Source: Nanobdellota archaeon (GTDB lineage: Archaea; Nanobdellota; Nanobdellia; Woesearchaeales; SM23-78). From it: 32,000 nucleotides of DNA. Position 1 is the first letter of the stretch, and the number at the start of each line of letters is the position of its first letter. The notes below the pieces were generated by a model. The model was not told the DNA's origin and made no database searches. It was given only the letters and a program-made list of their open reading frames with translations. Made by a program: the position numbers and the translations under genes. Shown here piece by piece: positions 2,338 to 30,254 of the stretch. The stretch covers positions 13,270 to 45,269 of the forward strand of contig JBBSWA010000031.1 in NCBI GenBank assembly GCA_038046485.1, written 5' to 3'.

Positions 2338-2795
2338 ATTAAGAATAAGACTCCAAAACCAACCAATAATCCTAGAATCACTCCAGCTGCTACGTCTTCT
2401 ATATAATGGCGCTTGAGATAGACTCGAGAGATGCAGACGGCAAATGTGAGTATGGCCAAAAAAAATTGCACGTAAAACCCAGTGAAATAAGACCCTAACA
2501 CGACGAGTAAACCCGCACTTCTTGCTGCGTGTAGACTCGGGAAGGATTCTTCGTCGACTTGAACTACTTTATTGATCGGCCAGATTTGGTCAAACCTTTT
2601 CTTCGGATCGAAATCCGGGCGATGCTTCTTGTAAAAAAACTTGATACTCAAGCCGATTGCAGTTGTAATTAAGATCATGAGGAATAGCTTAATGGATAAT
2701 TGCTCTTGCCCATTTAGGTAGGTGAATAGAGCTAAGACTAGAGAAAAAAAAATTGTTCCTAAACTACTGATGTGGCGAACGAACTTTTTGATCAT
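2334..2795 (-). CDS. PAP2-family membrane phosphatase (phosphatidic acid / undecaprenyl-diphosphate phosphatase type)
   Basis: All three PAP2 motifs are present: K(x6)RP 'KFFYKKHRP', 'PSLH', and 'SRVYLKRHYIEDV' (SRx5Hx3D). Multiple TM helices. Start overlaps the upstream gene (ATGA). Confidence 0.8.
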   Translation of the reverse strand: MIKKFVRHISSLGTIFFSLVLALFTYLNGQEQLSIKLFLMILITTAIGLSIKFFYKKHRPDFDPKKRFDQIWPINKVVQVDEESFPSLHAARSAGLLVVLGSYFTGFYVQFFLAILTFAVCISRVYLKRHYIEDVAAGVILGLLVGFGVLFLI

Positions 2796-3682
2796 TTTGC
2801 CCTCCAGACAATCTTTGCTATAAAAAAGCCTTCAGTTTGTGTTTTATGCGGCCATAACCTTCTGCATTTGCTTAGTTCTGGATTAAGCTTTTCCCCAAAG
2901 ACCTCCGTAAGACCTGGATCGCCAATTTCCAACTCTACTTTTTCTAGCTTTAGTTCAGGGTATTTTTTCAACAACCAGTCGATGTTCATTTCGTTTTCTT
3001 CGGGTTCTAATGTGCAGGTGGAATAGACCAAGACGCCGTCTTTCTTCAACACCTTGACAGCGGCTTTTAAGAGCTCCTTTTGTAATCGTGCACGCTCTTT
3101 AATCCCATCAATGGTTTTCTTCCCAAACCAATCCTTATCTGTGATGAAATTACCTGAACAGGGTGCATCGAGCAAAATCTTGTCAAACTTCATCTTGAAA
3201 TCCGGAATGAAACGAGCATCTTTCTTGTAAATGATCGAATTGGTAACCCCACAACGCTCCAAGTTGTTGCGCACTGAAACTAGGCGGTGCACATTCTCAT
3301 CCAATGCCATGATTACTCCTTTGTTTTTCATGTATTGCCCTATCTGAGTTGTTTTACTCCCTGGAGCTGCTGCCATGTCGAGCACGGTTTCGCCGGGTTT
3401 CGGATTTAAGACTTTGACAGGCAACTGGCTTGCCGCTTCTTGAAGGTAATAATACCCGATTAAGTATTCAGGTGTGGCACCCATGGAGAACTCGGCTTCG
3501 TACCAATACCCCCACTCCAAAAAAGGTATTTTTTCAAGCTTAACCCCTTCCTTTTTTAGACGCTTCACGATTTCCTCTTCCTGAATCTTTAACGTATTCA
3601 CTCGCAACGAAGGCCTTATTTCGATTGTCTCTGGATCAAAGTCAGCGCCGAGCTGCTTATACCGGTTCAGGAAGAAGTTCAT
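2792..3682 (-). CDS. NOL1/NOP2/Sun-family RNA cytosine-C5 methyltransferase
   Basis: SAM motif 'VLDMAAAPGSKTTQI' and catalytic Cys motifs 'LLDAPCSGNF' and 'YSTCTLEPEENE'. Confidence 0.85.
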   Translation of the reverse strand: MNFFLNRYKQLGADFDPETIEIRPSLRVNTLKIQEEEIVKRLKKEGVKLEKIPFLEWGYWYEAEFSMGATPEYLIGYYYLQEAASQLPVKVLNPKPGETVLDMAAAPGSKTTQIGQYMKNKGVIMALDENVHRLVSVRNNLERCGVTNSIIYKKDARFIPDFKMKFDKILLDAPCSGNFITDKDWFGKKTIDGIKERARLQKELLKAAVKVLKKDGVLVYSTCTLEPEENEMNIDWLLKKYPELKLEKVELEIGDPGLTEVFGEKLNPELSKCRRLWPHKTQTEGFFIAKIVWRAK

Positions 3683-3723: not shown

Positions 3724-3987
3724 TTATTGCAAGTATTCCTGGATTTCTTCCCTTTTCTTATGGTTTAGAGAAACGTGCAATCCGTACGAAGTTGGCTTTG
3801 GAACTAGAATTCCTTCTTGAATTAACTCTTCGATTGCTTCTTTTACACTGCCTTTGAAGTGACTCGGTAGACCTTTTCGAAGATTTTCAATGGCTGTATG
3901 CCGACCACCGATGTAACCATGATGGAAAAGTTTCTTAACGATAAAGCCTTTGAGTTGCTTTTTTTCCATTTCACTTGCGTCTATCAC
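3724..3987 (-). CDS. small hypothetical protein, possibly winged-helix-like
   Basis: 87-aa ORF, divergent from 4126. 'VKEAIEELIQEGILVPKPTSYGLHVSLN' resembles a wHTH recognition helix plus wing. Weak assignment. Confidence 0.45.
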   Translation of the reverse strand: MIDASEMEKKQLKGFIVKKLFHHGYIGGRHTAIENLRKGLPSHFKGSVKEAIEELIQEGILVPKPTSYGLHVSLNHKKREEIQEYLQ

Positions 3988-4062
3988 CTTTATTATAAAT
4001 CCGTGCGTCGGATTTTCGTATTTTTTCCGAGAAAAACAGAGGTTTTACGGGAAAAGCAAGTT

Positions 4063-4083
4063 CTTTTCGGCAAGCTCGAAAAT
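4063..4083. promoter_or_regulatory. inverted repeat cTTTTCG-N7-CGAAAAt abutting a TATA-like box; candidate operator
   Basis: cttttcg (4063-4069) and cgaaaat (4077-4083) are reverse complements. The box 'gctataaatag' (4085-4095) follows. Further TTTTCG copies lie at 4012-4018 and 4108-4114 (reverse). Confidence 0.3.
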
Positions 4084-4125: not shown

Positions 4126-4458
4126 ATGATGTTTACTAGAATCATGGAAAAATCGGTTTTCATCCAAACCTTTGGGGACTATCCTTTGATTCGGATCTTA
4201 GACTTTTTGATCTACTCCCGAGACTTTGACTACCCCATCACCGAGATTGCCAAGAACTCCGGCGTGAACTTTCAGACACTGAAAAAGTTGTGGCCTCGAT
4301 TGGAAAAAGAGAAAATGGTGATTGCCACTCGGAAACTCGGAGGGGGCCAACTCTACAAGATCAACATACAGAATGTGGTTGTGAAGAAACTGATTGAGTT
4401 CAATGAGTTTTTGTGCTGGGGGAATGTAGGGGAGAAGAAGATAGTTGTTAATAAGTGA
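4126..4458 (+). CDS. winged-helix DNA-binding protein (putative transcription regulator)
   Basis: 'YPITEIAKNSGVNFQTLKKLWPRLEKEKMVIATRKLGGGQLYKIN' has an HTH plus beta-wing pattern. An alternative start at 4144 (MEKSV...) would be leaderless relative to the box at 4114-4121. Confidence 0.6.
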   Translation: MMFTRIMEKSVFIQTFGDYPLIRILDFLIYSRDFDYPITEIAKNSGVNFQTLKKLWPRLEKEKMVIATRKLGGGQLYKINIQNVVVKKLIEFNEFLCWGNVGEKKIVVNK

Positions 4459-4464
4459 ATATAG

Positions 4465-4553
4465 AGGACTTTGAATAACCCTGCATATAGTGTTCAAAGT
4501 CCTAATAGAGCGCTTTGAATCATTTTCGGAAATACAGTTATTCAAAGCTCTCT
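4465..4553. terminator. two tandem related palindromes in a convergent intergenic region; possible bidirectional terminator hairpins
   Basis: Hairpin 1: aggactttgaa (4465-4475) / ttcaaagtcct (4493-4503), 11/11 bp. Hairpin 2: agagcgctttgaat (4507-4520) / attcaaagctctct (4540-4553), near-perfect. Both stems share a CTTTGAA/TTCAAAG core. Confidence 0.4.
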
Positions 4554-9020: not shown

Positions 9021-9728
9021 ATGGGAAAGAATATCACGCAGCAGAAAAGGGGAAAGGGAAGCCCAGTCTATAAGAAACCTAGCTTCCGCTTTGCTGGAAA
9101 AATTGAATACAAGCGGGGGAATTCCTATGAAGTCCAAGACATCATCAAATGCCCGATTCATACTGCTCCTTTAGCTCAAGTCAAGTATGACTCAGGTGAA
9201 GAAGGCCACTTAATTGCCCCAGAAGGCATGCGTGTTGGCGATCACAAGACCCTTGGACAAGATCAAGTTGAAATCGGAAATGTTCTTGCCCTCAAAGATA
9301 TTCCTGAAGGAGTAACCATCTTTAACATCGAGAGTAGACCTGGAGATGGCGGAAAATTCGTACGTGCGAGCGGTCTTTCTGCGCGCATTGTAGGAAAAAG
9401 TGAAGGTGAAGTACGCGTATTACTCCCCAGTCGCGTTGAAAAAGTATTCAACCCCGATTGCCGAGCCACCATTGGAACCATCGCTGGAAGCGGAAGACCT
9501 GAAAAGCCCTTCCTCAAAGCAGGCAATAAATTCCATCTAACTCAAGCTAAACATCAATACTGGCCAAGCGTAAGTGGAACGAGCAAGAACGCCGTTGCAC
9601 ATCCTTATGGAAAAGGCCGAAGCAGCAAGAAGGGTAGACCCACGATTGCTCCAGCCCACGCACCACCTGGACGAAAGGTCGGTAAGATCAGACCTCGACA
9701 AACTGGAAGAGGAGGCAAGAAGAGCTAA
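9021..9728 (+). CDS. rpl2: 50S ribosomal protein uL2
   Basis: 'GDGGKFVRASG', 'NAVAHPYGKGRS' and 'PGRKVG' motifs. Confidence 0.95.
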   Translation: MGKNITQQKRGKGSPVYKKPSFRFAGKIEYKRGNSYEVQDIIKCPIHTAPLAQVKYDSGEEGHLIAPEGMRVGDHKTLGQDQVEIGNVLALKDIPEGVTIFNIESRPGDGGKFVRASGLSARIVGKSEGEVRVLLPSRVEKVFNPDCRATIGTIAGSGRPEKPFLKAGNKFHLTQAKHQYWPSVSGTSKNAVAHPYGKGRSSKKGRPTIAPAHAPPGRKVGKIRPRQTGRGGKKS

Positions 9729-10108
9729 TGGCAAAAAAAATATTCCTCTACCGAGGAAAAACCCTCGAAGAATTGCAGCAGCTCACCGAGAAAGAACTCT
9801 CGTTACTTTTGCCCTCCCGACAGCGACGCAACTTACGCCGAGGCTTAACTGACTTAAAGAAAAAACTCTGGAAAAAGATAGAAGCCAAAGACCAAGTCAA
9901 AACTCATATTCGTGACATGATCGTTATGCCCAGCATGATTGGAAAAACCATCAAGATCCATAGTGGAAAAGAATGGATCCCTGTTTTCCTTGAAGCTGAC
10001 ATGATCGGCTCTTACTTTGGAGAACTCGTCCTTACTCGTAAAAAAGTAAATCACAGTGCACCTGGAATTGGAGCAACCAAGAGCAGTGCGCACACCGCGG
10101 TGAAATAA
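9728..10108 (+). CDS. rps19: 30S ribosomal protein uS19
   Basis: 'GKTIKIHSGKEWIPVFLEADMIGSYFGE...HSAPGIGAT'. Operon position. Confidence 0.93.
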   Translation: MAKKIFLYRGKTLEELQQLTEKELSLLLPSRQRRNLRRGLTDLKKKLWKKIEAKDQVKTHIRDMIVMPSMIGKTIKIHSGKEWIPVFLEADMIGSYFGELVLTRKKVNHSAPGIGATKSSAHTAVK

Positions 10109-10603
10109 ATGACTCAATACAAATGCGCCTACGAACACTATGCTTTGGATAAGCATGCTAAAGCCATCGGAAGAGATTTACCCATCTCTGTTCGTGCCTC
10201 CTCTGAGATTTGCAAGCAACTCCGATTCAAACCTCTTGAAAGGGCCAAGCGCATCTTACAACAAGCCATCGATATGGAAAAACCCATTCCCTTCAACCGT
10301 TTCACTCAAGGAGCTGGACACAAGGCCGGCATGAAAGGGGGTAAATACCCCATTAAAGCCTGTACGCATATTTTACGCATCCTTGAAAGCGCTGAAGCCA
10401 ATGCCCACAGCAAGGGTTTAGCTAAAGACTTAAAAGTCATCCATGTTATCCCTCAAAAGGCAGGCAAGTCTTTCCACTACGGACGTCAAAGCCGACGAAA
10501 GTTCAAACGCACTCACATTGAAGTTGTACTGGGCGAATACAAAAAAGAAGAAGCAAAACCCCGACCCCAAAAAAATGAAGCTAAAACAGAGGCCAAGAAA
10601 TGA
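10109..10603 (+). CDS. rpl22: 50S ribosomal protein uL22
   Basis: 'AIGRDLPISVRASSEICKQLRFKPLERAKRILQQAI'. Operon position. K/E-rich tail. Confidence 0.92.
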   Translation: MTQYKCAYEHYALDKHAKAIGRDLPISVRASSEICKQLRFKPLERAKRILQQAIDMEKPIPFNRFTQGAGHKAGMKGGKYPIKACTHILRILESAEANAHSKGLAKDLKVIHVIPQKAGKSFHYGRQSRRKFKRTHIEVVLGEYKKEEAKPRPQKNEAKTEAKK

Positions 10604-22294: not shown

Positions 22295-22525
22295 TTATTG
22301 CGGAGAAATAATGGTGATGGTGTCCCCGCGGATAAAGACGGTTCCGAGTTTGCGCTTGAGTTCGTTGTCCACTCTTTCTTCTGCATCGTCTAGAACCACA
22401 TTAATATGAATGTCAAATGCCTTTAACATGCCTGTATATTGGCGGCTGTTCTTTAATTCAACAATGACCCTTTTATTGCGACTCTTATTTAACGCGTCCA
22501 ATGGACGACTTTCCATATTTTCCAT
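22295..22525 (-). CDS. archaeal Sm-like (LSm / SmAP) protein
   Basis: Sm1 'RVIVELKNSRQYTGMLKAFDIHINVVLDDAEE' and Sm2 'LGTVFIRGDTITIISP'. A tttataaa box (22571-22578) lies upstream. Confidence 0.9.
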   Translation of the reverse strand: MENMESRPLDALNKSRNKRVIVELKNSRQYTGMLKAFDIHINVVLDDAEERVDNELKRKLGTVFIRGDTITIISPQ

Positions 22526-22945: not shown

Positions 22946-23311
22946 TTATGCACACCATCTCGCTCCGCTGGAGCTTGTGCCACAGGGAAATTGATAGTCC
23001 TCGTTATCCCCGTCATGATCATTCCAACGCCAGGGATGATAATAATAGGAGGGCCTTCCATATCCGTATCCATAGTAACTCGAATAGGGCGATCGGTAGC
23101 CTAAACGGGGTCTTGAATAACTGGAATAAGAATAGGGGTGCCACTGCCAGTAACCACTTGATTGATAACGATAGGGGTAATCCCAACTGTTATAGCGGTT
23201 GTAATTGTTGTAGTAATTATACGAGTCGCCGTTGTACGAGTACATGGCTGAGGCAAAGGGTAGTAAAGCGAGTAACACTAAAGCCAAAACTATCCCTTGT
23301 GAGGTTTTCAT
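22946..23311 (-). CDS. secreted tyrosine-rich low-complexity protein
   Basis: Signal peptide 'MKTSQGIVLALVLLALLPFASA', then a Y/S/N/G/P/W-rich region (24 Tyr in about 99 residues by hand count) ending 'CGTSSSGARWCA'. I prefer the ATG at 23311; the track start at 23356 is a GTG inside the promoter-like repeat. Confidence 0.6.
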   Translation of the reverse strand: MKTSQGIVLALVLLALLPFASAMYSYNGDSYNYYNNYNRYNSWDYPYRYQSSGYWQWHPYSYSSYSRPRLGYRSPYSSYYGYGYGRPSYYYHPWRWNDHDGDNEDYQFPCGTSSSGARWCA

Positions 23312-23335
23312 AGAATGGGGGAATACGAAGAACTT

Positions 23336-23436
23336 TTTAAACGTTCTGAATTTCACCTTATTAAAAACCCAATATTGGGTGAAATTCTGACGTGATCAAG
23401 AACTGCTTATCATATCTTTTTGGCAGTTCTTGACAG
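23336..23436. repeat. left copy of the inverted promoter/operator-like module
   Basis: Blocks 23336-23352, 23383-23410 and 23426-23436 match the reverse complement of 29499-29515 (17/17), 29441-29468 (27/28) and 29382-29392 (11/11). Block 1 contains TTTAAAAA. Confidence 0.8.
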
Positions 23437-23475
23437 TTTATCCTTAAGGATATCTGAGATGTTTGATATTCATTC

Positions 23476-23866
23476 TTAAGAATAACCATACGGGTTCCAA
23501 TACGAACCCCCATACCTGGTTTGAGGGTAGGCATATACCTCCTGATTGGAGTATGTGTCTACGACGTTATGAATATCCTGTACTTGGTACACCTTATGGT
23601 GTACGGTTCTTAAAATATGATTGCGCTCATGCGTAAAATAACGGTTGATGGGCTGTACATCGTACACGTCTTTCTGAGATACATCTGTATTTAGCGTGTT
23701 AGAAGGTCCATAACTAGGGGAGTTATAGACTCCGTAGTTGAGTTGATTATAAGGCGCATAATAATAGAGAGGTAGGATATCCATATCCTAGAAACTGATA
23801 AGCTCCTACGAGGCTTACGGCTAACAGTGCAATGAGACTGAATACAATCAAAGAGATGATTTTCAT
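23476..23866 (-). pseudogene. second secreted Tyr-rich protein, split by a 1-nt frame discontinuity (pseudogene, assembly indel or recoding)
   Basis: The ATG at 23866 encodes the signal peptide MKIISLIVFSLIALLAVSLVGAYQFLGYGYP... and stops after 38 codons. The Tyr-rich 102-aa ORF (23476-23784) continues in the +1 frame from within the GGATATGGATAT repeat. A gtttttaaac box lies about 26 nt upstream of 23866. Confidence 0.45.
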
Positions 23867-23905
23867 ATCCTGGGGAGGGGTATCTGGTTTTTAAACATTC
23901 GCCCC

Positions 23906-24379
23906 CTATTCTGAGATCTCGACACCCACCTTAGCCTCAGAAACCAGCTTTATATAGTCCTTGGTTGAAATGGCCATGGAGTCGGTAACCAGACCCACGT
24001 TGAAGTTGATTTCTTCGTTTTCCAATAGGGATTTATCGATGTATAATGGAAGGCTTAGTAGGTTTCCAAAGGGAGGAACACTGCCTGGCTCGCAGCCTGT
24101 TTTTTCTAAAAGTTCTTCTGGGTTTGCAAAACGAACCTTTTTTGCACCTAACAGATTACGGATTTTGTTTGAATCAAGCCTTTTGGCGGCGGATAAGACA
24201 CACATGATGAACTCTTCATCTACCTTAAGTACCATGGCCTTGGCACCGGTTTTGACATCCACCCCGCGGATCTTAGCTGCTTCTTCTGACGTACGAACGG
24301 GAGCATGGTGGAACTCTTTGAAGGGGACGTTATTCTGCTGGAATAAAGAACGGATCTTATCCAGGGTTTCTTGTGACAT
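23906..24379 (-). CDS. YbaK/EbsC/ProX-type aminoacyl-tRNA deacylase domain protein
   Basis: 'GAKAMVLKVDEE' and 'GCEPGSVPPFGNL' motifs typical of the YbaK / prolyl-tRNA editing domain family. Confidence 0.75.
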   Translation of the reverse strand: MSQETLDKIRSLFQQNNVPFKEFHHAPVRTSEEAAKIRGVDVKTGAKAMVLKVDEEFIMCVLSAAKRLDSNKIRNLLGAKKVRFANPEELLEKTGCEPGSVPPFGNLLSLPLYIDKSLLENEEINFNVGLVTDSMAISTKDYIKLVSEAKVGVEISE

Positions 24380-24409
24380 CTTATTTGGAGAATTACTTCA
24401 TTTATCAAA

Positions 24410-25018
24410 TTAATGCTTTCTTAAAGCCAAAATACTAAGTATTAAACCGGCCAACGCGATTGCATTAAACCAATATTGATACGAATTTTTTTCAGGGAAT
24501 ACAAATTTCTCTTGATCTTTAGGACAACCAAATGAGCCACTCTTGGATAGGCGCGTGACTCTCTCTGCAATTTTCACTGAGTTATTATCGGAATCGCCAT
24601 GGTTCATTCCTTCCATATTACATTCAAATGTGACATCAAACGGCACACTTTCAATCGAACCGAAAAGATGGTATGCAATCGGAATGGCTTTGCTGAAGTA
24701 AATCGTATTCTTGTAAGAACCTGGACTTCCATACACTGCTTGAATACTCCATTCCTGTCTTTCGTTTCCAGCGATCACTTCCACTTTCAACGACTTCTCC
24801 AAGCCTTCCATCGGAATTTCTGATAGGTTTCCACTCTGATTCTTGACTTCCTTCACCCTCAAATCAATTCCTGACTTGTCTTCCACAACCACAGGCTCAT
24901 TTAGAGAACCGATGACAAAAGAATAGGTTTTATTCCCGATCTTAAAGACTTGATGCTCATGTGCCGTAACGAGAGATACAAACAAAAGAAATAAGATGAT
25001 CCCTTGAAGCCATTTCAT
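24410..25018 (-). CDS. secreted, C-terminally membrane-anchored protein with a His-rich mature N-terminus
   Basis: Signal peptide 'MKWLQGIILFLLFVSLVTA', followed directly by 'HEHQV'. C-terminal TM plus basic tail 'YWFNAIALAGLILSILALRKH'. The architecture, not clear sequence similarity, recalls YcnI/DUF1775 metal-binding proteins. Confidence 0.55.
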   Translation of the reverse strand: MKWLQGIILFLLFVSLVTAHEHQVFKIGNKTYSFVIGSLNEPVVVEDKSGIDLRVKEVKNQSGNLSEIPMEGLEKSLKVEVIAGNERQEWSIQAVYGSPGSYKNTIYFSKAIPIAYHLFGSIESVPFDVTFECNMEGMNHGDSDNNSVKIAERVTRLSKSGSFGCPKDQEKFVFPEKNSYQYWFNAIALAGLILSILALRKH

Positions 25019-25073
25019 GGAGTTCAGCTCTCTTCCCCTCTTTAAAAAGAATTAGGGACAAAAGACGAACGAT

Positions 25074-27146
25074 TTACTTCTTCCAATGTAGCCCAGCATA
25101 GAATGAACGACCTGGTGCCGGCTCATAGTAACGGCCATTGTTTGGATCCACATCCACTTGAGTTGAGCCGCTGAAGCGAGCATCTGTCAGGTTTTTGCCT
25201 TCCAAGAATAGACCAAAACCTTTGAATTTAACTTCTCCGCTTACATTCAATGCCGTATGCCCTTTATTGGTTACTGTATTTGGGCTATCTAAGAAATAAC
25301 TATCTAGTACGGAATCCACACTGGGTGCTATCTCGAACCCACTACTGTCATAGCGTACTTCTGCATGAAGTACCTGGTTGGGTGCGCCGGGAAGCTTGTT
25401 GTCCTCAAATATAGAATGATCCACAAAATGGAAATCACTGAGTGTGTATGCTGCGCGCATTCCTAGATGGTCTCCTTCGCGAGCTATGTTTTCTGCGATG
25501 CGCACACCTACCCCCAATTCTAATCCACTATGCCGTGATTTAGGAGCATTTACATAACTGGGAATGGTGAATGGAGCGCCTGGGAAGGGCTGAAGATTCA
25601 CATTTAGGAGTTCATTTGCCCAATCTGATCTGTATACTGCGGCGTCTAATGTTATGTGCTCTCCGATTTGTCCACGTGTACCCAGTTCAAACTGCCAAGC
25701 ACTTTGCGCTTTCAGCGGTAAAAAACCTTGTTCTGCCCCGAAACTGGTGAGTTCGAGTGTTAACGGAGATTCATAGGAACGACTGGCATTGCCAAATACC
25801 TGTGCCTTTTTCGCAACGCGCCACACAAAGCCTACTTTGGGCTGGATGGCTTGATAGGTTCTTGCATCTGAGCTGTCCCCCTCACTTGGAAATCGATCCT
25901 CAAACATCCGTCTTGAAGAATCAAACCGTGCGCCGGTTACGAGTGTGAAGTTGCTTGTGAGATCCCATTGATTTTCAGCATATATTCCTAGGTTGGTGGT
26001 GTCTGCTCGAAAGTCACCCGTTAGCTCTCCTTTTTTACCCGCGTCATTTACAAAACGATGTTCTGTGTTTCCGCCCAGCTGAGGAGCAAAGCCGATCACG
26101 AAGCGATCTTTTTTACCATTGAATTTGTAAGCAAGATCGGCGCCGATTGTATGCTGACTCTGCCTTAAGACCTGAAAGATGGGATGTTCCACTTCTCGAT
26201 TATGCCCATACAGCGTGACAGCAACGACATTCTGATCATTGATGCGATGATTTACTGTGAAAGCCACGTGGGCGAAATCATAATTGCGCCCCCACTGTTG
26301 CTCTACATTCGTTGGATCTGCCATTTGAGGATTTGATTTAAACTCTTGGAGCGTGAGTGCACCTGGAAGTTCTTCGGTGACATGCGCGTAAGCTATATCG
26401 AGACGTGTATCTGTTTTTTGAGTTGGTCTCCAAACGAGATTTGAAAAGAGCCTTTGTCTACCTTGTTCACTGTGCTTTCGATATCCACCTAGCTCTGTAT
26501 CTGAAAGACTTATGTAGTAGCCCATATGTCCGTTGTCGTTTCCTGAAGAAAATTGACCCTTGAACAACCCATTTGAGCCTGCGCCTAAACGAAGCTGTAG
26601 CGGGGAAGCCGTAGCACCGGTTTCTGTGACAAAGTTAATGGCACCACCCATGGTGTTTCCCCCAAGGCGCAATGCATTTGCTCCTTTCCATACTTCCACA
26701 CGATTGGTGGCTGAAGGATCCCAACTTTCAAAGTCACTGAATCCATCTGCATCTCCATACGGAACGCCATTGAATAACACATTTGTTCCACGATGATGGA
26801 AGTTATTGCGCCCCCCACTACCACGGATAGAGACCTGACTTTCATCGGCACCTGTTCTGGATGGAGCAAAAACCCCTGGCGTAAATGCAAGGACATCTTC
26901 CAAGTTGTGAGCACGTGTTCTTTGAATGTCTTCTGAAGTAACTTCTGTTACACTCCCTGGGACTTGATCTAATTCTGATTTGGAGTGTTCGATTACTGTT
27001 ACAGTAAGATTTACTGCTGGAATTTTAGAATCTGTACTTTCAGCTGCAACTTGCTGAGGTTCTTCTTTTGGTCCAGTGTAGGCCCCACTTGGACGCACAA
27101 GAGATCCAGCAAGCAACGCTGGAAACAAGATGTTTCTTAATTTCAT
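25074..27146 (-). CDS. TonB-dependent receptor (bacterial outer-membrane plug plus 22-strand beta-barrel family)
   Basis: Signal peptide. Plug blocks 'VPGSVTEVTSEDIQRTRAHNLEDVLAFTPGV', 'VSIRGSGG', 'VLFNGVPYGD' and 'RVEVWKGANALRLGGNTMGGAINFVT'. Barrel-end block 'GKNLTDARF...YYEPAPGRSFYAGLHWKK'. Confidence 0.88.
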   Translation of the reverse strand: MKLRNILFPALLAGSLVRPSGAYTGPKEEPQQVAAESTDSKIPAVNLTVTVIEHSKSELDQVPGSVTEVTSEDIQRTRAHNLEDVLAFTPGVFAPSRTGADESQVSIRGSGGRNNFHHRGTNVLFNGVPYGDADGFSDFESWDPSATNRVEVWKGANALRLGGNTMGGAINFVTETGATASPLQLRLGAGSNGLFKGQFSSGNDNGHMGYYISLSDTELGGYRKHSEQGRQRLFSNLVWRPTQKTDTRLDIAYAHVTEELPGALTLQEFKSNPQMADPTNVEQQWGRNYDFAHVAFTVNHRINDQNVVAVTLYGHNREVEHPIFQVLRQSQHTIGADLAYKFNGKKDRFVIGFAPQLGGNTEHRFVNDAGKKGELTGDFRADTTNLGIYAENQWDLTSNFTLVTGARFDSSRRMFEDRFPSEGDSSDARTYQAIQPKVGFVWRVAKKAQVFGNASRSYESPLTLELTSFGAEQGFLPLKAQSAWQFELGTRGQIGEHITLDAAVYRSDWANELLNVNLQPFPGAPFTIPSYVNAPKSRHSGLELGVGVRIAENIAREGDHLGMRAAYTLSDFHFVDHSIFEDNKLPGAPNQVLHAEVRYDSSGFEIAPSVDSVLDSYFLDSPNTVTNKGHTALNVSGEVKFKGFGLFLEGKNLTDARFSGSTQVDVDPNNGRYYEPAPGRSFYAGLHWKK

Positions 27147-27198
27147 ATTTTATTGAATAAAGCAAGTTACTTATATATCCTTAGGGACGAAAAACGAA

Positions 27199-27720
27199 CT
27201 ATTCTTCCCAAGTGTCCACAAATTTATCCACTAACTTATCCAAGAAGCTTTCTTTATACGCAATGAGGATCTTTACTACTTCATCCTTGTCTTTTAATTC
27301 GTATGTTTTTTCCCTTCCTTTCTTGCGGGAAACAATCACGTTTTGTTTTTCAAGTACGTTCAGATAGGTGGTAATTGTGGAAGGAAACTTACCGAGCTCC
27401 TTTACGAGCTCTTTATGGTTTACCCCTTTATCTGTTAATAGCTTTAAGACGATTCGTCGATAAGCCCCTTGTTGTAAAACTCCTAATAAATTACGCTCGT
27501 AGTCGTTCAACCCCAAAGGGAAAAGGCGCTTATTTCCCCTGCTTTTTTCAACCTTGATCAGGTTTTTCTTTTCCAGGTATCTTAAATGGTATTCTAGATT
27601 GCCTGTTCCTCTGTTATATAATCGATATAAAGCCCTGAAATGGATGCCTGGGAACTGCTCGATTAAAGAATAAATCTTCTTTCTGGTCTCTAACAGCAAA
27701 GCGTCCTCTTTTTGCTTCAT
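27199..27720 (-). CDS. transcription regulator with two tandem winged-helix domains (ArsR/archaeal wHTH type)
   Basis: Two wHTH units: 'IYSLIEQFPGIHFRALYRLYNRGTGNLEYHLRYLEKKNLIKVE' and 'RIVLKLLTDKGVNHKELVKELGKFPSTITTYLNVLEKQNVIVSRKKGREKTYEL'. Confidence 0.75.
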   Translation of the reverse strand: MKQKEDALLLETRKKIYSLIEQFPGIHFRALYRLYNRGTGNLEYHLRYLEKKNLIKVEKSRGNKRLFPLGLNDYERNLLGVLQQGAYRRIVLKLLTDKGVNHKELVKELGKFPSTITTYLNVLEKQNVIVSRKKGREKTYELKDKDEVVKILIAYKESFLDKLVDKFVDTWEE

Positions 27721-27980
27721 CTTAAAATCCCAAGAGCGAACAACACGAGAATGACTAAGCTAAGGGCATGGGTGAAGACCTCCACGGATGCTGAGCCCCA
27801 TACGATTATATTCATCGCCAAAACCACTTCCTTGATTGCGAAAATCAAGAACGCTGCGCAGATGAACAAGAACTTCCTGTTTTTATTCCGCTGATAGACC
27901 AAAGAGGCCAAGCCGAACAAGGATAGAGACAAGGCTGCTGTTACAAAATGCAAGAGATGATGCCATGAAATTACTTCCAT
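27717..27980 (-). CDS. small 3-TM membrane protein, translationally coupled to the wHTH regulator
   Basis: 87 aa with three hydrophobic helices. ATGA overlap with the downstream regulator gene at 27717-27720. Confidence 0.6.
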   Translation of the reverse strand: MEVISWHHLLHFVTAALSLSLFGLASLVYQRNKNRKFLFICAAFLIFAIKEVVLAMNIIVWGSASVEVFTHALSLVILVLFALGILR

Positions 27981-28015
27981 TACGTTAGAAAATCCATTTG
28001 GTTTTATAAATTTGA

Positions 28016-29329
28016 CTACATCTCATCCATTCGGATTTGTTGATAAGGCTTTTTATACACTTTTTCAAAGATCACTTTTCTTTCTAAGATCATCACGGCT
28101 ATGAATAAGACGGACATCAAGCCAAGCTGCACCCAGGCAAACTCCTTTAAGGAACCGTGGAACAAAAGGATAAAGACCAAGTCACACATGAAGGCGAGCC
28201 ACAATAAGGCAATGTTGTCATACTCTTCTTTTGCTAGCTTATATGAATAGACTAGATTGATGATGGACAATAACGTGAAAGCCAGGGTCCCTGCGAAGAG
28301 AATTTCTGAACCTCCAAAACTCGAGCCGAAAACCGCTGTGACAATCCACTTGGGAAACAGAAGAAAAATCAACAGCAGCACCCCAGATGAGATCAAGTGG
28401 TAACGTAAGATGGACTTGAAATACGGTGCTGTTTCCGCACTTGTGCTAAATGCTTCTACAACTTTTGGAAAGAATACGCTTGCAAGTGATATGGAAATCA
28501 TGAAGGGGATCTTAAAAAGCATAGACAATGCAAGATAATTGCCTGCTAGCTCACTTGAAAGGTAGTGTTTTGCAAAAATCACATCTAGATACAACAGAAT
28601 GGAAAGGGCAAGAGAAACGCAGCATACTGGCCAAGCATACCTCAAGATTTCATGACGCTTTACTTGATATAGCTTGATGCGCTTCCATTTCATAAGTGGC
28701 TTTAATGCAATCAGATATGCGCCTACGGTTCCTAGAACGAATGCCGCTATGGCCCCATTTGTCTTAAATCCTATGAAGAACAAACCTACTACTAGCAAAA
28801 GCCTAAACAAGGGATCGAAAAACTTGAGTAGACTCAACTGGAAAAACTCTTGCAAGCCTCTCAAGGTGCCGTTCACGACCGGCTCTATTGTCGCTAGGAT
28901 GATTCCTGCTCCGAGCCAGAACACCGTTCCTTCATTTTTCATATGAAAAAAAGAACTCACCCATCCATTAAATAGAAAGAGGAGCAATGCAATGACTATC
29001 CCTACTGAGAAAAATACTTTAAACGCTGAAATGGAAAGATACATGATCATTTCCACCTGGCTTCTTGTTCGGTAATAGGAGATGAATTTGGTAATGACCA
29101 TTTCACTTACAAGTCCTGCAATGGCTACCGCAAGAATGATTGAGGTTATGACTCCTACTGTTCCGTACTCTTCTGGACCCAATTTCCTTGAAGTAATCAC
29201 ATGAAATACTAAGTTAAAGAGACTTCCAGCTAGAGTCATTAAGCCCAGCATTGCTGTCGTCTTAAACAGGTCTAGGTCCCACTCTTTAGACCGAGACTTC
29301 CACCAGAACCAAGACTTAAACGGATCCAT
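28016..29329 (-). CDS. MOP-superfamily polysaccharide/oligosaccharide flippase (Wzx-like)
   Basis: 437 aa with about 12-14 TM helices. Overall pattern of 'polysaccharide biosynthesis protein' type transporters. No catalytic motif expected. Confidence 0.65.
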   Translation of the reverse strand: MDPFKSWFWWKSRSKEWDLDLFKTTAMLGLMTLAGSLFNLVFHVITSRKLGPEEYGTVGVITSIILAVAIAGLVSEMVITKFISYYRTRSQVEMIMYLSISAFKVFFSVGIVIALLLFLFNGWVSSFFHMKNEGTVFWLGAGIILATIEPVVNGTLRGLQEFFQLSLLKFFDPLFRLLLVVGLFFIGFKTNGAIAAFVLGTVGAYLIALKPLMKWKRIKLYQVKRHEILRYAWPVCCVSLALSILLYLDVIFAKHYLSSELAGNYLALSMLFKIPFMISISLASVFFPKVVEAFSTSAETAPYFKSILRYHLISSGVLLLIFLLFPKWIVTAVFGSSFGGSEILFAGTLAFTLLSIINLVYSYKLAKEEYDNIALLWLAFMCDLVFILLFHGSLKEFAWVQLGLMSVLFIAVMILERKVIFEKVYKKPYQQIRMDEM

Positions 29330-29381
29330 CCTTCACCTATCCTGAGCTAAAGAAAGAGGCTTATAAAGCTTTCTTAGTAAC

Positions 29382-29515
29382 CTGTCAAGAACCCCCAATA
29401 TAGCTCGACGATATGCCGTTTTGCGGCATGTTACTTATTTATAAGCGGTTCTTGATCACGTCAGAATTCTATCTAATTTACTTATTTTAGATAGATGGAA
29501 TTCAGAACGTTTAAA
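29382..29515. repeat. right copy of the inverted promoter/operator-like module
   Basis: See the left copy. Block order is mirrored: 29382-29392, 29441-29468, 29499-29515. Block 1 contains TTTAAATA, 24 nt before the ATG at 29540. Extra hairpin atgccg-ttttg-cggcat within the longer b2-b3 spacer. Confidence 0.8.
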
Positions 29516-29539
29516 TAAGGTGTTTCTATTATATGTTTC

Positions 29540-29674
29540 ATGAGCGAACTCGATAAAATCCGCAAGAAACTCGAGAAAGAGTTTGAAGAGAAGATTGAGG
29601 TCGATGAAGAAAGCGACCATCCCATTCATGAAAAGTACACGAAACCCAAAAAAGCGAAGTGGACGAAAGAATAA
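29540..29674 (+). CDS. 44-aa K/E-rich ORF at the leaderless position of the duplicated promoter; either a separate micro-protein or the frameshifted N-terminus of the next gene
   Basis: My own translation is MSELDKIRKKLEKEFEEKIEVDEESDHPIHEKYTKPKKAKWTKE. It overlaps the 5' part of ORF 29583-30254 in another frame. An A6 run lies at 29648-29653. Confidence 0.35.
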   Translation: MSELDKIRKKLEKEFEEKIEVDEESDHPIHEKYTKPKKAKWTKE

Positions 29675-30254
29675 GTTGGTTCCTAAGCGAACTTCGCCTA
29701 CTGTTCTTCAAGCCTTAGAGCTCATTCCTAACCAGATCACTTTTTTACGACTGTTGCTCTTATTCCCACTATGGTACACGGCGCTCTTTAACTATAGAAC
29801 TTCCTTTGTCTTTTTTTTCCTTCTTGCCGGGGCCACGGATATTTTGGATGGTTATTTAGCGCGTAAGCTCAACCAAGTCACACATTTTGGTGCGGCATTT
29901 GACAGCTTGGTGGATAACTTGATTGGGCTATCCATGGTCTTTTGGGCGTATCTATGGCTGCCTGAGCTGATCCAAGACCACCTCGTACTCATCATCTGGA
30001 TTTTCATCCTGCTTGCCGTCAACCTGAGTTTACAGCTGTGGACCTATCACCGATTCCTTCCTTTGCATCTTTACTCTGGAAAGTTGGAATTGATTTTGAT
30101 TTACTTGTTCTTTGCCCATGCTGTCCTCTATGGGTATTCTAACTTATTCCTATCTATTTGCGTGATTGTCGGAGTCGTTACACTCATTGAAGAAATCATC
30201 ATCACGTTGCAACGCAGAACCATGCATGAAGGAACTAAGACTGTGTTTCATTGA
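29583..30254 (+). CDS. CDP-alcohol phosphatidyltransferase family protein (archaeal phospholipid head-group synthase type)
   Basis: Perfect D(x2)DG(x2)AR(x8)G(x3)D(x3)D motif in 'DILDGYLARKLNQVTHFGAAFDSLVD'. Multiple TM helices. Start uncertain: TTG 29583, ATG 29604 (preceded by gaggt) or ATG 29628. Confidence 0.82.
   Translation: MKRRLRSMKKATIPFMKSTRNPKKRSGRKNKLVPKRTSPTVLQALELIPNQITFLRLLLLFPLWYTALFNYRTSFVFFFLLAGATDILDGYLARKLNQVTHFGAAFDSLVDNLIGLSMVFWAYLWLPELIQDHLVLIIWIFILLAVNLSLQLWTYHRFLPLHLYSGKLELILIYLFFAHAVLYGYSNLFLSICVIVGVVTLIEEIIITLQRRTMHEGTKTVFH

Follow-up and report, generated by a model that had tools for sequence, protein, structure and literature searches.

The stretch of DNA analysed here (the window) is a 32,000-nt segment from a Nanobdellota archaeon (GenBank assembly GCA_038046485.1, contig JBBSWA010000031.1, positions 13,270 to 45,269 of the forward strand). 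The host is a DPANN ('Nanoarchaeota') archaeon from groundwater, and the gene content of the window is archaeal, with an LSm gene (22295-22525), an HVO_0163-type winged helix-turn-helix (wHTH) gene (27199-27720), a ribosomal-protein/SecY block, and a 5S rRNA, which is the only feature of the window that passes the Rfam gathering thresholds. Two copies of a short repeat lie here in inverted orientation, bracketing a segment of 6 kb. The left copy faces the gene for a 121-aa tyrosine-rich secreted protein (22946-23311, minus strand; ATG at 23311), and the right copy faces a 44-aa open reading frame (ORF; 29540-29674, plus strand), which runs, in a different frame, into the start of a CDP-alcohol phosphatidyltransferase gene (29628-30254, plus strand; ATG at 29628). 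The genes between the repeats are all on the minus strand and comprise a 102-aa tyrosine-rich ORF, a tRNA_edit (YbaK-like) gene, a gene for a 202-aa membrane protein, a TonB-dependent receptor gene, the wHTH gene, a gene for an 87-aa membrane protein, and a Polysacc_synt flippase gene (28016-29329). The two repeats are probably diverged copies of a short, gene-less, non-autonomous mobile element of the IS200/IS605 (Y1/HUH) kind, similar to the palindrome-associated transposable elements (PATEs). Loci in other assemblies are denoted below by L numbers.

A sequence-only reading of the window had described three colinear inverted blocks, all of which were recovered at the same coordinates: b1 (TTTAAACGTTCTGAATT; 23336-23352 and 29499-29515, 17/17 identical), b2 (23383-23410 and 29441-29468, 27/28, with a perfect stretch of at most 21 nt), and b3 (GTTCTTGACAG; 23426-23436 and 29382-29392, 11/11). 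A repeat search returned them as two pairs of inverted arms, 23336-23410 with 29441-29515 (75 nt, 79%) and 23420-23440 with 29378-29398 (21 nt). In the window, the b2 28-mer has two matches at up to three mismatches (0.00 expected), and b1 has two exact matches (0.25 expected even with three mismatches allowed). The b3 9-mer GTTCTTGAC, with 13 matches at up to one mismatch against 9.2 expected, is not above chance alone, and b3 is meaningful only as the sequence that pairs with TCAAGAAC in b2. Between b1 and b2, each copy has a spacer of 30 nt, and the two spacers are palindromic and differ in sequence, as had been observed. The equal length does not extend to the wider family (26 nt in L013, 28 nt in L018, and a 5-nt loop in L006), but the suggestion that the spacers conserve their structure and not their sequence was correct, for they form the inner part of a covarying hairpin. 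A pattern scan of the 32 kb found the two copies and no third, and an nhmmer profile made from the first three copies gave no additional match in the window, L008 or L010.

The left copy (23341-23436, 96 nt, top strand on the window plus strand) starts with ACGTTCTGAATT... and ends with ...GTTCTTGACAG. Its first hairpin, H1 (23341-23393, +), is built from b1, the 30-nt spacer and the first part of b2, and has its foot at nucleotide 1 and a single bulge. As single-stranded DNA it folds with z = -6.7, and its arms form a duplex of -10.6 kcal/mol that is equalled in 1/200 shuffles. The second hairpin, hp2 (23396-23433, +), joins the end of b2 to b3 in an 11-bp perfect stem, TCAAGAAC(TGC)...(GCA)GTTCTTGA, and is followed by the CAG tail that forms the right end (23434-23436, +). 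Just outside the left end stands the flank TTTAA (23336-23340, +), which doubles as part of the TATA box that serves the minus-strand gene. The right copy (29382-29510, 129 nt, top strand on the window minus strand) has the same layout: the flank TTTAA (29511-29515, -), overlapping the TATA box of the 44-aa ORF; H1 (29458-29510, -; z = -5.1, duplex -10.7 kcal/mol, 0/200 shuffles as good); hp2 (29385-29455, -), whose 55-nt interior contains a small hairpin of its own, CATGCCG/CGGCATG; and the CAG tail (29382-29384, -). The hp2 interior of a copy in L006 is likewise 55 nt. Across the hairpins, single-strand folds give z = -4.3 to -6.7. There are no terminal inverted repeats, since ACGTTCTGAATT... 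does not match the reverse complement of ...GTTCTTGACAG. The conserved blocks are the hairpin feet and the element ends, and the differing palindromic spacers are covarying inner stems.

A TTTAAAWA box placed at -30 to -23 relative to the ATG is the arrangement of an archaeal leaderless promoter. This geometry is found at both copies and is conserved in relatives. The predicted TATA box of the tyrosine-rich secreted protein gene (TTTAAAAA, 23334-23341, -) lies 24 nt from the ATG at 23311 and predates the element, and that of the 44-aa ORF (TTTAAATA, 29510-29517, +) lies at the same distance from the ATG at 29540. The latter ATG opens the conserved 44-aa ORF and not the phosphatidyltransferase itself. 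On the right copy's opposite side, just past its right end, is a TATA-like box of the flippase gene (GCTTTATAAGCC, 29361-29367, -), within a promoter block AAGCTTTATAAGCC...GGATG that is conserved in L006, L008 and L010.

Relatives, reached through phosphatidyltransferase homologues (58-87% identity) and their contigs, show what these sites look like when empty. In L008, L010, L011 and L012, from which the element is absent, GTTTAAATA followed by 24 nt and ATG stands upstream of the 44-aa ORF, and in L006 the variant GCTTAAATAAA is found. In the first four of these, the end of a 178-234-aa gene precedes the TATA box, and homology with the window starts at the TATA box. Around the right copy, homology with relatives is picked up again at this TATA box in one direction and at the flippase promoter in the opposite one. 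The 178-234-aa gene lies between the flippase gene and the 44-aa ORF in most relatives (L008 6655-7587; L010 9138-9880); the window (29376-29539) and L006 lack it and carry repeat or hairpin sequence there instead.

At the left copy, the orthologous tyrosine-rich gene of L006 is preceded by ATG, 24 nt and TTTAAA (read away from the gene), and then at once by GTTTATCCTTAA, in which the next gene has its stop codon. L006 thus has an empty site, TTTAA joined directly to AGTTTATCC, where the window has an insertion of 94 nt (breakpoint scan 26/28), and BLAST homology between the window and L006 ends at 23341 and restarts at 23477. A second empty site, GGTTTATAATG joined to TTTATAAAGG in L008, matches a 104-nt copy in L006 (breakpoint scan 31/32). 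The junction ambiguity is only 1-2 nt in both comparisons, and there is no target-site duplication. Because they are present in relatives without the element, the TTTAAA within b1 and its 24-nt spacing belong to the target promoter and not to the repeat. The sequence-only reading had noted TTTAAA, 24 nt and ATG at both 23311 and 29540 as part of a duplicated promoter-like module. The motifs are indeed there, and both copies abut what are, judged by their sequence, genuine pre-existing promoters of the archaeal leaderless type; the promoters are older than the repeat, and the similarity of the two sites is that of mobile-element copies. The insertion replaces the native sequence at the position of the B recognition element (BRE), GATAAA(A)C/G, with CAGAACG.

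Further copies were found outside the window. L006 has no module at either of the two window sites, but has a copy at 9186-9291 between a PIN/T2SSE ATPase gene and mazE. L013, from the same groundwater series, has a copy at 3934-4075 with an identical 17-mer b1, upstream of a THUMP methyltransferase gene and again at TTTAAA plus 24 nt plus ATG; 6 kb from it is an IS200-type transposase gene. The orthologous THUMP site of L018 also holds a copy, swollen by nested small hairpins. Neither target duplications nor terminal inverted repeats were found at the insertions in the window, L006, L013 and L018. In all five window-type copies examined, the same end stands against a TATA box about 24 nt from a start codon. 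At the THUMP promoter of a third lineage, L017 (1-89), no element stands beside the TTTAAA, and the pattern in L013, L018 and L017 may reflect selection, repeated site-specific insertion, or excision.

The search for b2 elsewhere, which had been proposed as a check, was negative in its literal form: a degenerate b2 pattern had no match in the first metagenome scan or in the viral scan; b2 is specific to a subfamily. The 19-mer TTCTGACGTGATCAAGAAC had only two matches in the genome collection, both in bacterial contigs and judged to be chance. Members of the wider family were recovered with the pattern TCAAGAACN{20,50}GTTCTTGACAGNTT in a second metagenome scan, which returned 77 loci. After removal of coincidences in coding sequences, about 40 distinct sequences with the full architecture remained.

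These members are about 95-180 nt long and carry no gene. On the top strand they read: a flank TT[G/T/A]A[A/T], a left end A[T/C][G/A]T..., H1, a linker of 2-3 nt, the second hairpin, and CAG. The second hairpin consists of TCAAGAAC, 2-4 covarying pairs, an inner hairpin, and GTTCTTGA, and the right end is a fixed ...GACAG. In the left flank, T is found at -5 in 33/39 and at -4 in 28/39, position -3 is G, T or A and never C, A is found at -2 in 32/39, and A or T at -1 in 33/39; in the right flank, apart from the TT that the search pattern demanded, no signal of this kind was scored. Within one member, H1 and the second hairpin tend to have inner hairpins of one loop type, either CTTTAG or TCTATGA, so that the two ends of a member resemble each other as they do in IS200/IS605 elements. 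The members are dispersed. An identical 125-nt element occurs with different flanks in L023, L055 and L095, and L064 and L094 are nearly identical, again with different flanks. Since sequence identity between such copies stops directly after GACAG, the right boundary lies there. In L034, whose host is archaeal, at least four copies lie within 1.3 kb between the aIF1A and aIF2-beta genes. Across the family there is no fixed position or orientation relative to gene starts.

A covariance model, R1, was built with a hand-written structure from six metagenome members only, the window being excluded. It matched the window at full length at 23341-23436 (+; 36.5 bits, E = 3e-6) and at 29382-29510 (-; 27.0 bits, E = 8e-4) in a search of 471 kb, and L006 at full length at 9186-9291 (31.2 bits). 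All three matches end at the boundaries that had been derived earlier from empty sites and flanks. In an alignment of the 38 best R1 matches, which is itself fitted to the model, 94.6% of the cells in paired columns can pair, against 78.3% in shuffles, and compensatory (two-sided) changes occur in 24 of the 32 pairs over 37 distinct members, a number reached in 0/500 shuffles. In helix 1, the foot of H1, 14 of 15 pairs show such changes. When the partners are slid by one to three columns as a control, pairing falls to 33-48%. Taken sequence by sequence, the duplex energy of the H1 arms beats at least 198/200 shuffles in 32 of 40 members, which represent 26 distinct 12-mers. The clamp TCAAGAAC/GTTCTTGA is invariant, partly because the search pattern imposed it, and the pairs that extend it covary (CG/TA/AT, then AT/CG/GC, then CG/AT and others). 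An alternative route with MAFFT and RNAalifold recovered only the invariant clamp, because the positions of bulges vary between subfamilies, and was replaced by the hand-written structure and covariance model. Three known motifs were considered by eye and rejected: a hammerhead ribozyme (the core is CUGANCA, not CUGANGA, and there is no GAAA), a C/D-box sRNA (no RUGAUGA), and an integron attC site (no RYYYAAC/GTTRRRY cores).

The repeat is a dispersed, structured element without terminal inverted repeats or target-site duplications, which is inserted cleanly beside TTTAA. It shares with the PATEs of Haloquadratum walsbyi (PMC3119063) and the PATE-like elements of Geobacillus (PMC10055086) all the descriptive features of that kind, namely the absence of inverted terminal repeats, palindromes near the termini, no target duplication, and a length too short for coding (PMC3119063). 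At 96 and 129 nt, the window copies are too short for a transposase gene, and the family is multi-copy. The likeness extends to a short conserved oligonucleotide on the target side and to small hairpins that insert in or beside the palindromes, as SMR-A does into PATE palindromes (PMC3119063), and it may extend to a relation of the palindromes to those of an IS200/IS605-type element that carries a transposase in related genomes. The present family differs from PATEs in that its host is a DPANN archaeon and not a haloarchaeon, its outer stems close the left end from nucleotide 1 up to the linker, an invariant 8-bp TCAAGAAC/GTTCTTGA clamp surrounds the right-end hairpin, units of the left-end hairpin are multiplied in tandem, its autonomous relative is of the IS200 type (tnpA only) with ends that are similar but not identical, and the canonical inner hairpins are lost in the window copies. 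The family is new, whereas its kind is already known; no description of it was found in the literature.

TTTAA is the insertion motif of IS605-type elements of Sulfolobus islandicus (PMC11043419), and the motif of the family, TT[G/T/A]A[A/T] (TTTAA in the window), resembles the 4-5-nt motifs of IS608, ISDra2 and the S. islandicus elements (TTAC, TTGAT and TTTAA, respectively) in standing on the left only. Subterminal hairpins that are alike at both ends of one element are likewise a feature of the IS200/IS605 family. In canonical members, the distance from the foot of the right hairpin to the right end is about 11 nt, while in IS608, whose target motif is TTAC, the right cleavage site lies 10 nt past the hairpin foot (PMC3201880). 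The family differs from IS200/IS605 elements proper in carrying neither tnpA nor tnpB, and no guide/cleavage pairing of the IS608 type could be assigned in it.

With repetitive extragenic palindromic (REP) elements, their REPIN arrangements with REP-associated tyrosine transposases (RAYTs), and the bacterial interspersed mosaic elements (BIMEs) (PMC3116915, PMC2817692, PMC3733652), the family shares short, structured palindromes outside genes that vary in a compensatory way, an arrangement in tandem or in clusters (in L033, L034, L018 and L008), and two similar small hairpins between the left end and tnpA in L006 and L013. REP/RAYT systems, in contrast, are described in bacteria, where palindromes of 20-40 nt with a conserved unpaired GTAG (or CGTC) tag flank a single-copy RAYT gene; the family has no GTAG tag. 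CGTC, CCTC or TGTC, partly base-paired, occur at the hairpin feet of the family, and REP/RAYT systems and CGTC-tagged REPs (PMC3733652) are a looser analogy to its arrays of small hairpins. Classical miniature inverted-repeat transposable elements (for example the SM elements of Sulfolobus) are also small, non-coding, multi-copy and intergenic, but they have terminal inverted repeats and usually target-site duplications, neither of which is present here.

A candidate source of the mobilising activity is an IS200-type element with only a Y1_Tnp gene (152 aa; domain match 4.6e-28), found in L006 (about 2765-3533) and L013 (about 9657-10427) as copies 91% identical. Comparison of the two insertion contexts places its boundaries after TTTAT, before AGCCGGAG..., on the left and directly after ...GTAGTTCACAA on the right; in a longer read-out they are TTTAT before AGCCGGAGCCC... 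and the end of ...GGGCGGRGTAGTTCACAA. Its right end reads GAACT ... ACGCCCCGTCC(C/A)TTTAGGGCGG(A/G)G ... AGTTCACAA, and its left end holds an GGCTTTAGCC hairpin together with two small ones of the H1-foot type. The right-end hairpin (ACGCCCCGTCCCTTTAGGGCGG) agrees with that of family member L064 at 21/22 bases, which is equalled in 0/500 shuffles, and a GAAC...GTTC clamp encloses it also in the IS200-type element. The terminal nucleotides differ (GTAGTTCACAA in the IS200-type element, GTTCTTGACAG in the family), and the window copies do not have the shared inner hairpin. The flanks of the Y1_Tnp gene in L006 are without the terminal sequences of the module, only the hairpin type and the right-end hairpin being shared. 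The likeness of the right ends would nevertheless support mobilisation by transposases of this Y1 clade. Homologues of the Y1 protein at 65-70% identity are very numerous in metagenomes, bacterial ones included.

The history of the two sites may then be pictured as follows. A Y1 transposase supplied in trans would recognise the hairpins and mobilise the element through a single-stranded intermediate ('peel and paste'). Because the flank motif TTTAA(A) doubles as the archaeal TATA box, insertion on the upstream side of the box would leave the promoter working and would be tolerated. If only such insertions are tolerated, the left end is expected against the TATA box of the outward-facing gene in each copy, as is seen, and the copies are inverted relative to each other because the two genes are divergent.

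Several observations weigh against this explanation. There is no transposase gene in the window, and tblastn found no Y1 transposase in the 77 metagenome loci and their flanks, so that the cognate enzyme is known only by inference; a Y1_Tnp gene lies 6 kb from the window-type copy of L013, and another is in L006, but L013 and the window are perhaps separate genomes. H1 begins at nucleotide 1, and a left cleavage-hairpin spacing of the IS608 type is obtained only if the inner hairpin is the one recognised. Canonical members have inner hairpins with CTTTAG or TCTATGA loops; these are missing from the window copies, which are perhaps decayed and no longer mobile. In each comparison with an empty site, a discrepancy of 2 nt is left. 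The fitting of the alignment to the model and the part of the search pattern in the invariance of the clamp, both mentioned above, count here as well. Finally, the element ends of L013 and L018 are about 93-95% identical, against 69-77% for the flanking DNA (L013 3929-4090 compared with L018 9685-10010), a hint that a host function is under selection or that site-specific insertion has recurred.

The last observation bears on a variant in which the window-type subfamily homes to the BRE/TATA junction through TTTAA(A), replaces the BRE, and is then kept by the host as a structured module upstream of the promoter, possibly as a platform for binding, or as an insulator or terminator where genes are tightly packed. 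Such a history would explain why the same end is at the TATA box in all five window-type copies, why the outer stems are perfectly kept though the inner hairpins of the transposase type are gone, and why the ends in L013 and L018 are so much better conserved than the flanks (about 72%); on balance it is regarded as possible but unlikely. A rival reading is that of a shared cis-regulatory module. In this case one factor, for example the wHTH protein of 27199-27720, would bind b2 and b3 upstream of BRE/TATA and co-regulate the tyrosine-rich gene and the operon of the 44-aa ORF and phosphatidyltransferase. Both copies do lie directly upstream of the TATA boxes of leaderless genes, as archaeal operators and upstream activating sites do, b1, b2 and b3 are perfectly kept between them whereas the interiors differ, the ends in L013 and L018 are more conserved than their surroundings, and with CAGAACG at the BRE position some effect on promoter strength is plausible. 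However, the sequence in question is a full copy of a dispersed structured repeat, and common descent of the copies of a multi-copy mobile element already explains the similarity, so that a shared operator is not needed. Members elsewhere have no fixed position or orientation to gene starts, the orthologous promoters of relatives share the TATA box and spacing without the module, and the conserved blocks are the paired feet of hairpins with compensatory changes rather than a palindromic operator of the type bound by proteins. Co-regulation as the origin of the repeats is hence considered improbable.

It is also quite improbable that the repeats are genes for a structured non-coding RNA whose helices the hairpins represent. 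Covariation alone does not distinguish single-stranded DNA from RNA, and the very strong covariation in two to four helices, the compact size, and the conserved single-stranded linker and tail would suit an RNA; moreover, guide (omega) RNAs whose end is the right end of the element can be encoded by the PATEs of TnpB-bearing elements (PMC10055086). Against this, a search of Rfam 15 with the window region and nine member loci gave no match even at E ≤ 1, no TnpB gene was seen, and the left end has its conserved motif beyond the paired part, as a target site would be. Identical copies with different flanks, tandem clusters, clean empty sites, and a right end homologous to that of a Y1-transposase element also weigh against an RNA gene. 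The remaining proposals concern the DNA between the repeats. That the repeats serve as substrates for inversion of 23437-29381, a DNA switch, was suggested by their inverted orientation and the perfect stretch of up to 21 nt in b2, and is now highly unlikely. Among assemblies (not raw reads) from four different samples, L001 and L098 span both copies and L002 and L003 the right one, and all are colinear with the window at 99.99-100% identity, so that a single orientation is seen throughout. Gene orientation is unchanged in relatives without the repeats, a domain search found no invertase or recombinase gene in or near the segment, and an inversion would separate both promoters from their genes. 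That the repeats are the termini of a composite element or island which delivered the TonB-dependent receptor and its neighbours is scarcely credible. It is true that the middle of the segment varies between relatives and that the receptor region has a G+C content of 46.5% compared with about 41% around it. Nevertheless, the inner neighbours of both repeats (the 102-aa gene, tRNA_edit and the flippase gene) are syntenic core genes in relatives without repeats, which contradicts the notion of island termini, the variable slot is 1-4 kb away from either repeat, and the repeats are complete small elements with left and right ends of their own rather than the outward ends of a larger one.

The synteny underlying the last point, a comparison that the sequence-only reading had itself called for, is as follows. 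The order LSm, two small tyrosine-rich genes, tRNA_edit, variable slot, flippase, and the divergent 44-aa ORF and phosphatidyltransferase is kept in relatives; in L006, L008 and L010, which have no repeats at these sites, the 102-aa gene, tRNA_edit and the flippase gene have the same order and orientation as in the window. The same genes are thus found between non-repeated flanks, and only the slot between tRNA_edit and the flippase gene differs (in the 202-aa gene and the TonB-dependent receptor gene, and in some relatives also in the wHTH and 87-aa genes), and is a variable hot spot (window 24380-28015; L006 1807-3540; L008 2191-5340; L010 7902-7912). It contains genes for the 202-aa protein, the TonB-dependent receptor, the wHTH protein and the 87-aa protein in the window; CopC, a 219-aa protein, a wHTH protein and DUF5985 in L008; two small genes and the IS200-type Y1_Tnp gene in L006; and nothing in L010. 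These differences do not depend on the repeats. What lies in the 6 kb between the copies is ordinary chromosome, variable in its middle, and not cargo.

It follows that a false lead is removed, the 6-kb segment being neither an island bounded by repeats nor a switch, and that a family of structured non-autonomous elements, from groundwater and sediment archaea of the DPANN and other uncultured groups, is defined with exact ends and a tested covariance model. The host genomes are small and tightly packed, with intergenic regions of 38 nt in relatives, and elements at the BRE/TATA junction could alter promoter strength and pad intergenic regions with arrays of hairpins. The many natural variants of the left and right ends with compensatory changes would be handy substrates for the study of hairpin recognition by archaeal Y1 transposases, and the family may be used as a marker when intergenic repeats are annotated in such metagenome-assembled genomes.

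Small perfect hairpins, with a stem of 8-10 bp, a loop of 3-5 nt and the form CAGAAAnnn/nnnTTTCTG, occur in arrays in L008 (6720-6990), L006 (4985-5029 and 2950-2995), L013 (3990-4040 and 9850-9895), L018 (9745-9900), L033 (939-1064), and L022. They are found in intergenic regions, inside copies of the element, and between the left end and tnpA of the IS200-type element. They look like collapsed or tandemly multiplied feet of the left hairpin, which would be REP/BIME-like behaviour in archaea. Another repeat unit (...ATGTACCACCCTTACAATGGTGTAAATTTCGGGGATAAGGTCAAATGAA...) is present in two copies in L085 (5114-5207 and 6120-6214); it has the same TCAAGAAC...GTTCTTGACAG clamp at its end and a different left part, and may be a different subfamily or a chimeric element.

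Among the neighbouring genes, the 44-aa ORF (MSELDKIRKKLEKEFEEK...), which is of the leaderless type, overlaps the start of the phosphatidyltransferase by 47 nt in the +1 frame, and an A6 run (CCCAAAAAAGCG) lies within the overlap. Its identity across six lineages is 82-95%, compared with 69-87% for the enzyme. A frameshift or sequencing error at 29540-29674 was considered and ruled out, the two-ORF layout being identical in independent assemblies and in relatives. The ORF would be either a real micro-protein or a device for coupling or +1 frameshifting.

The TonB-dependent receptor gene (25074-27146, -) is complete, with Plug and beta-barrel, and is named 'TonB-dependent receptor [Nanoarchaeota archaeon]' by NCBI (MEK6963470.1). 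Being contiguous with archaeal genes in the window and in 3/4 further assemblies, it is not chimeric. Its host, a DPANN archaeon, is not known to have an outer membrane. The two small, very tyrosine-rich proteins encoded at 22946-23311 (-) and 23476-23784 (-) have no Pfam match, and the first has an N-terminus like a signal peptide; in all relatives examined, both genes adjoin the LSm gene. Lastly, an unrelated pair of adjacent hairpins, which does not match model R1, is located at 4465-4503 (arms AGGACTTTGAA/TTCAAAGTCCT) and 4512-4548 (arms GCTTTGAAT/ATTCAAAGC), directly after a small gene (4126-4458).

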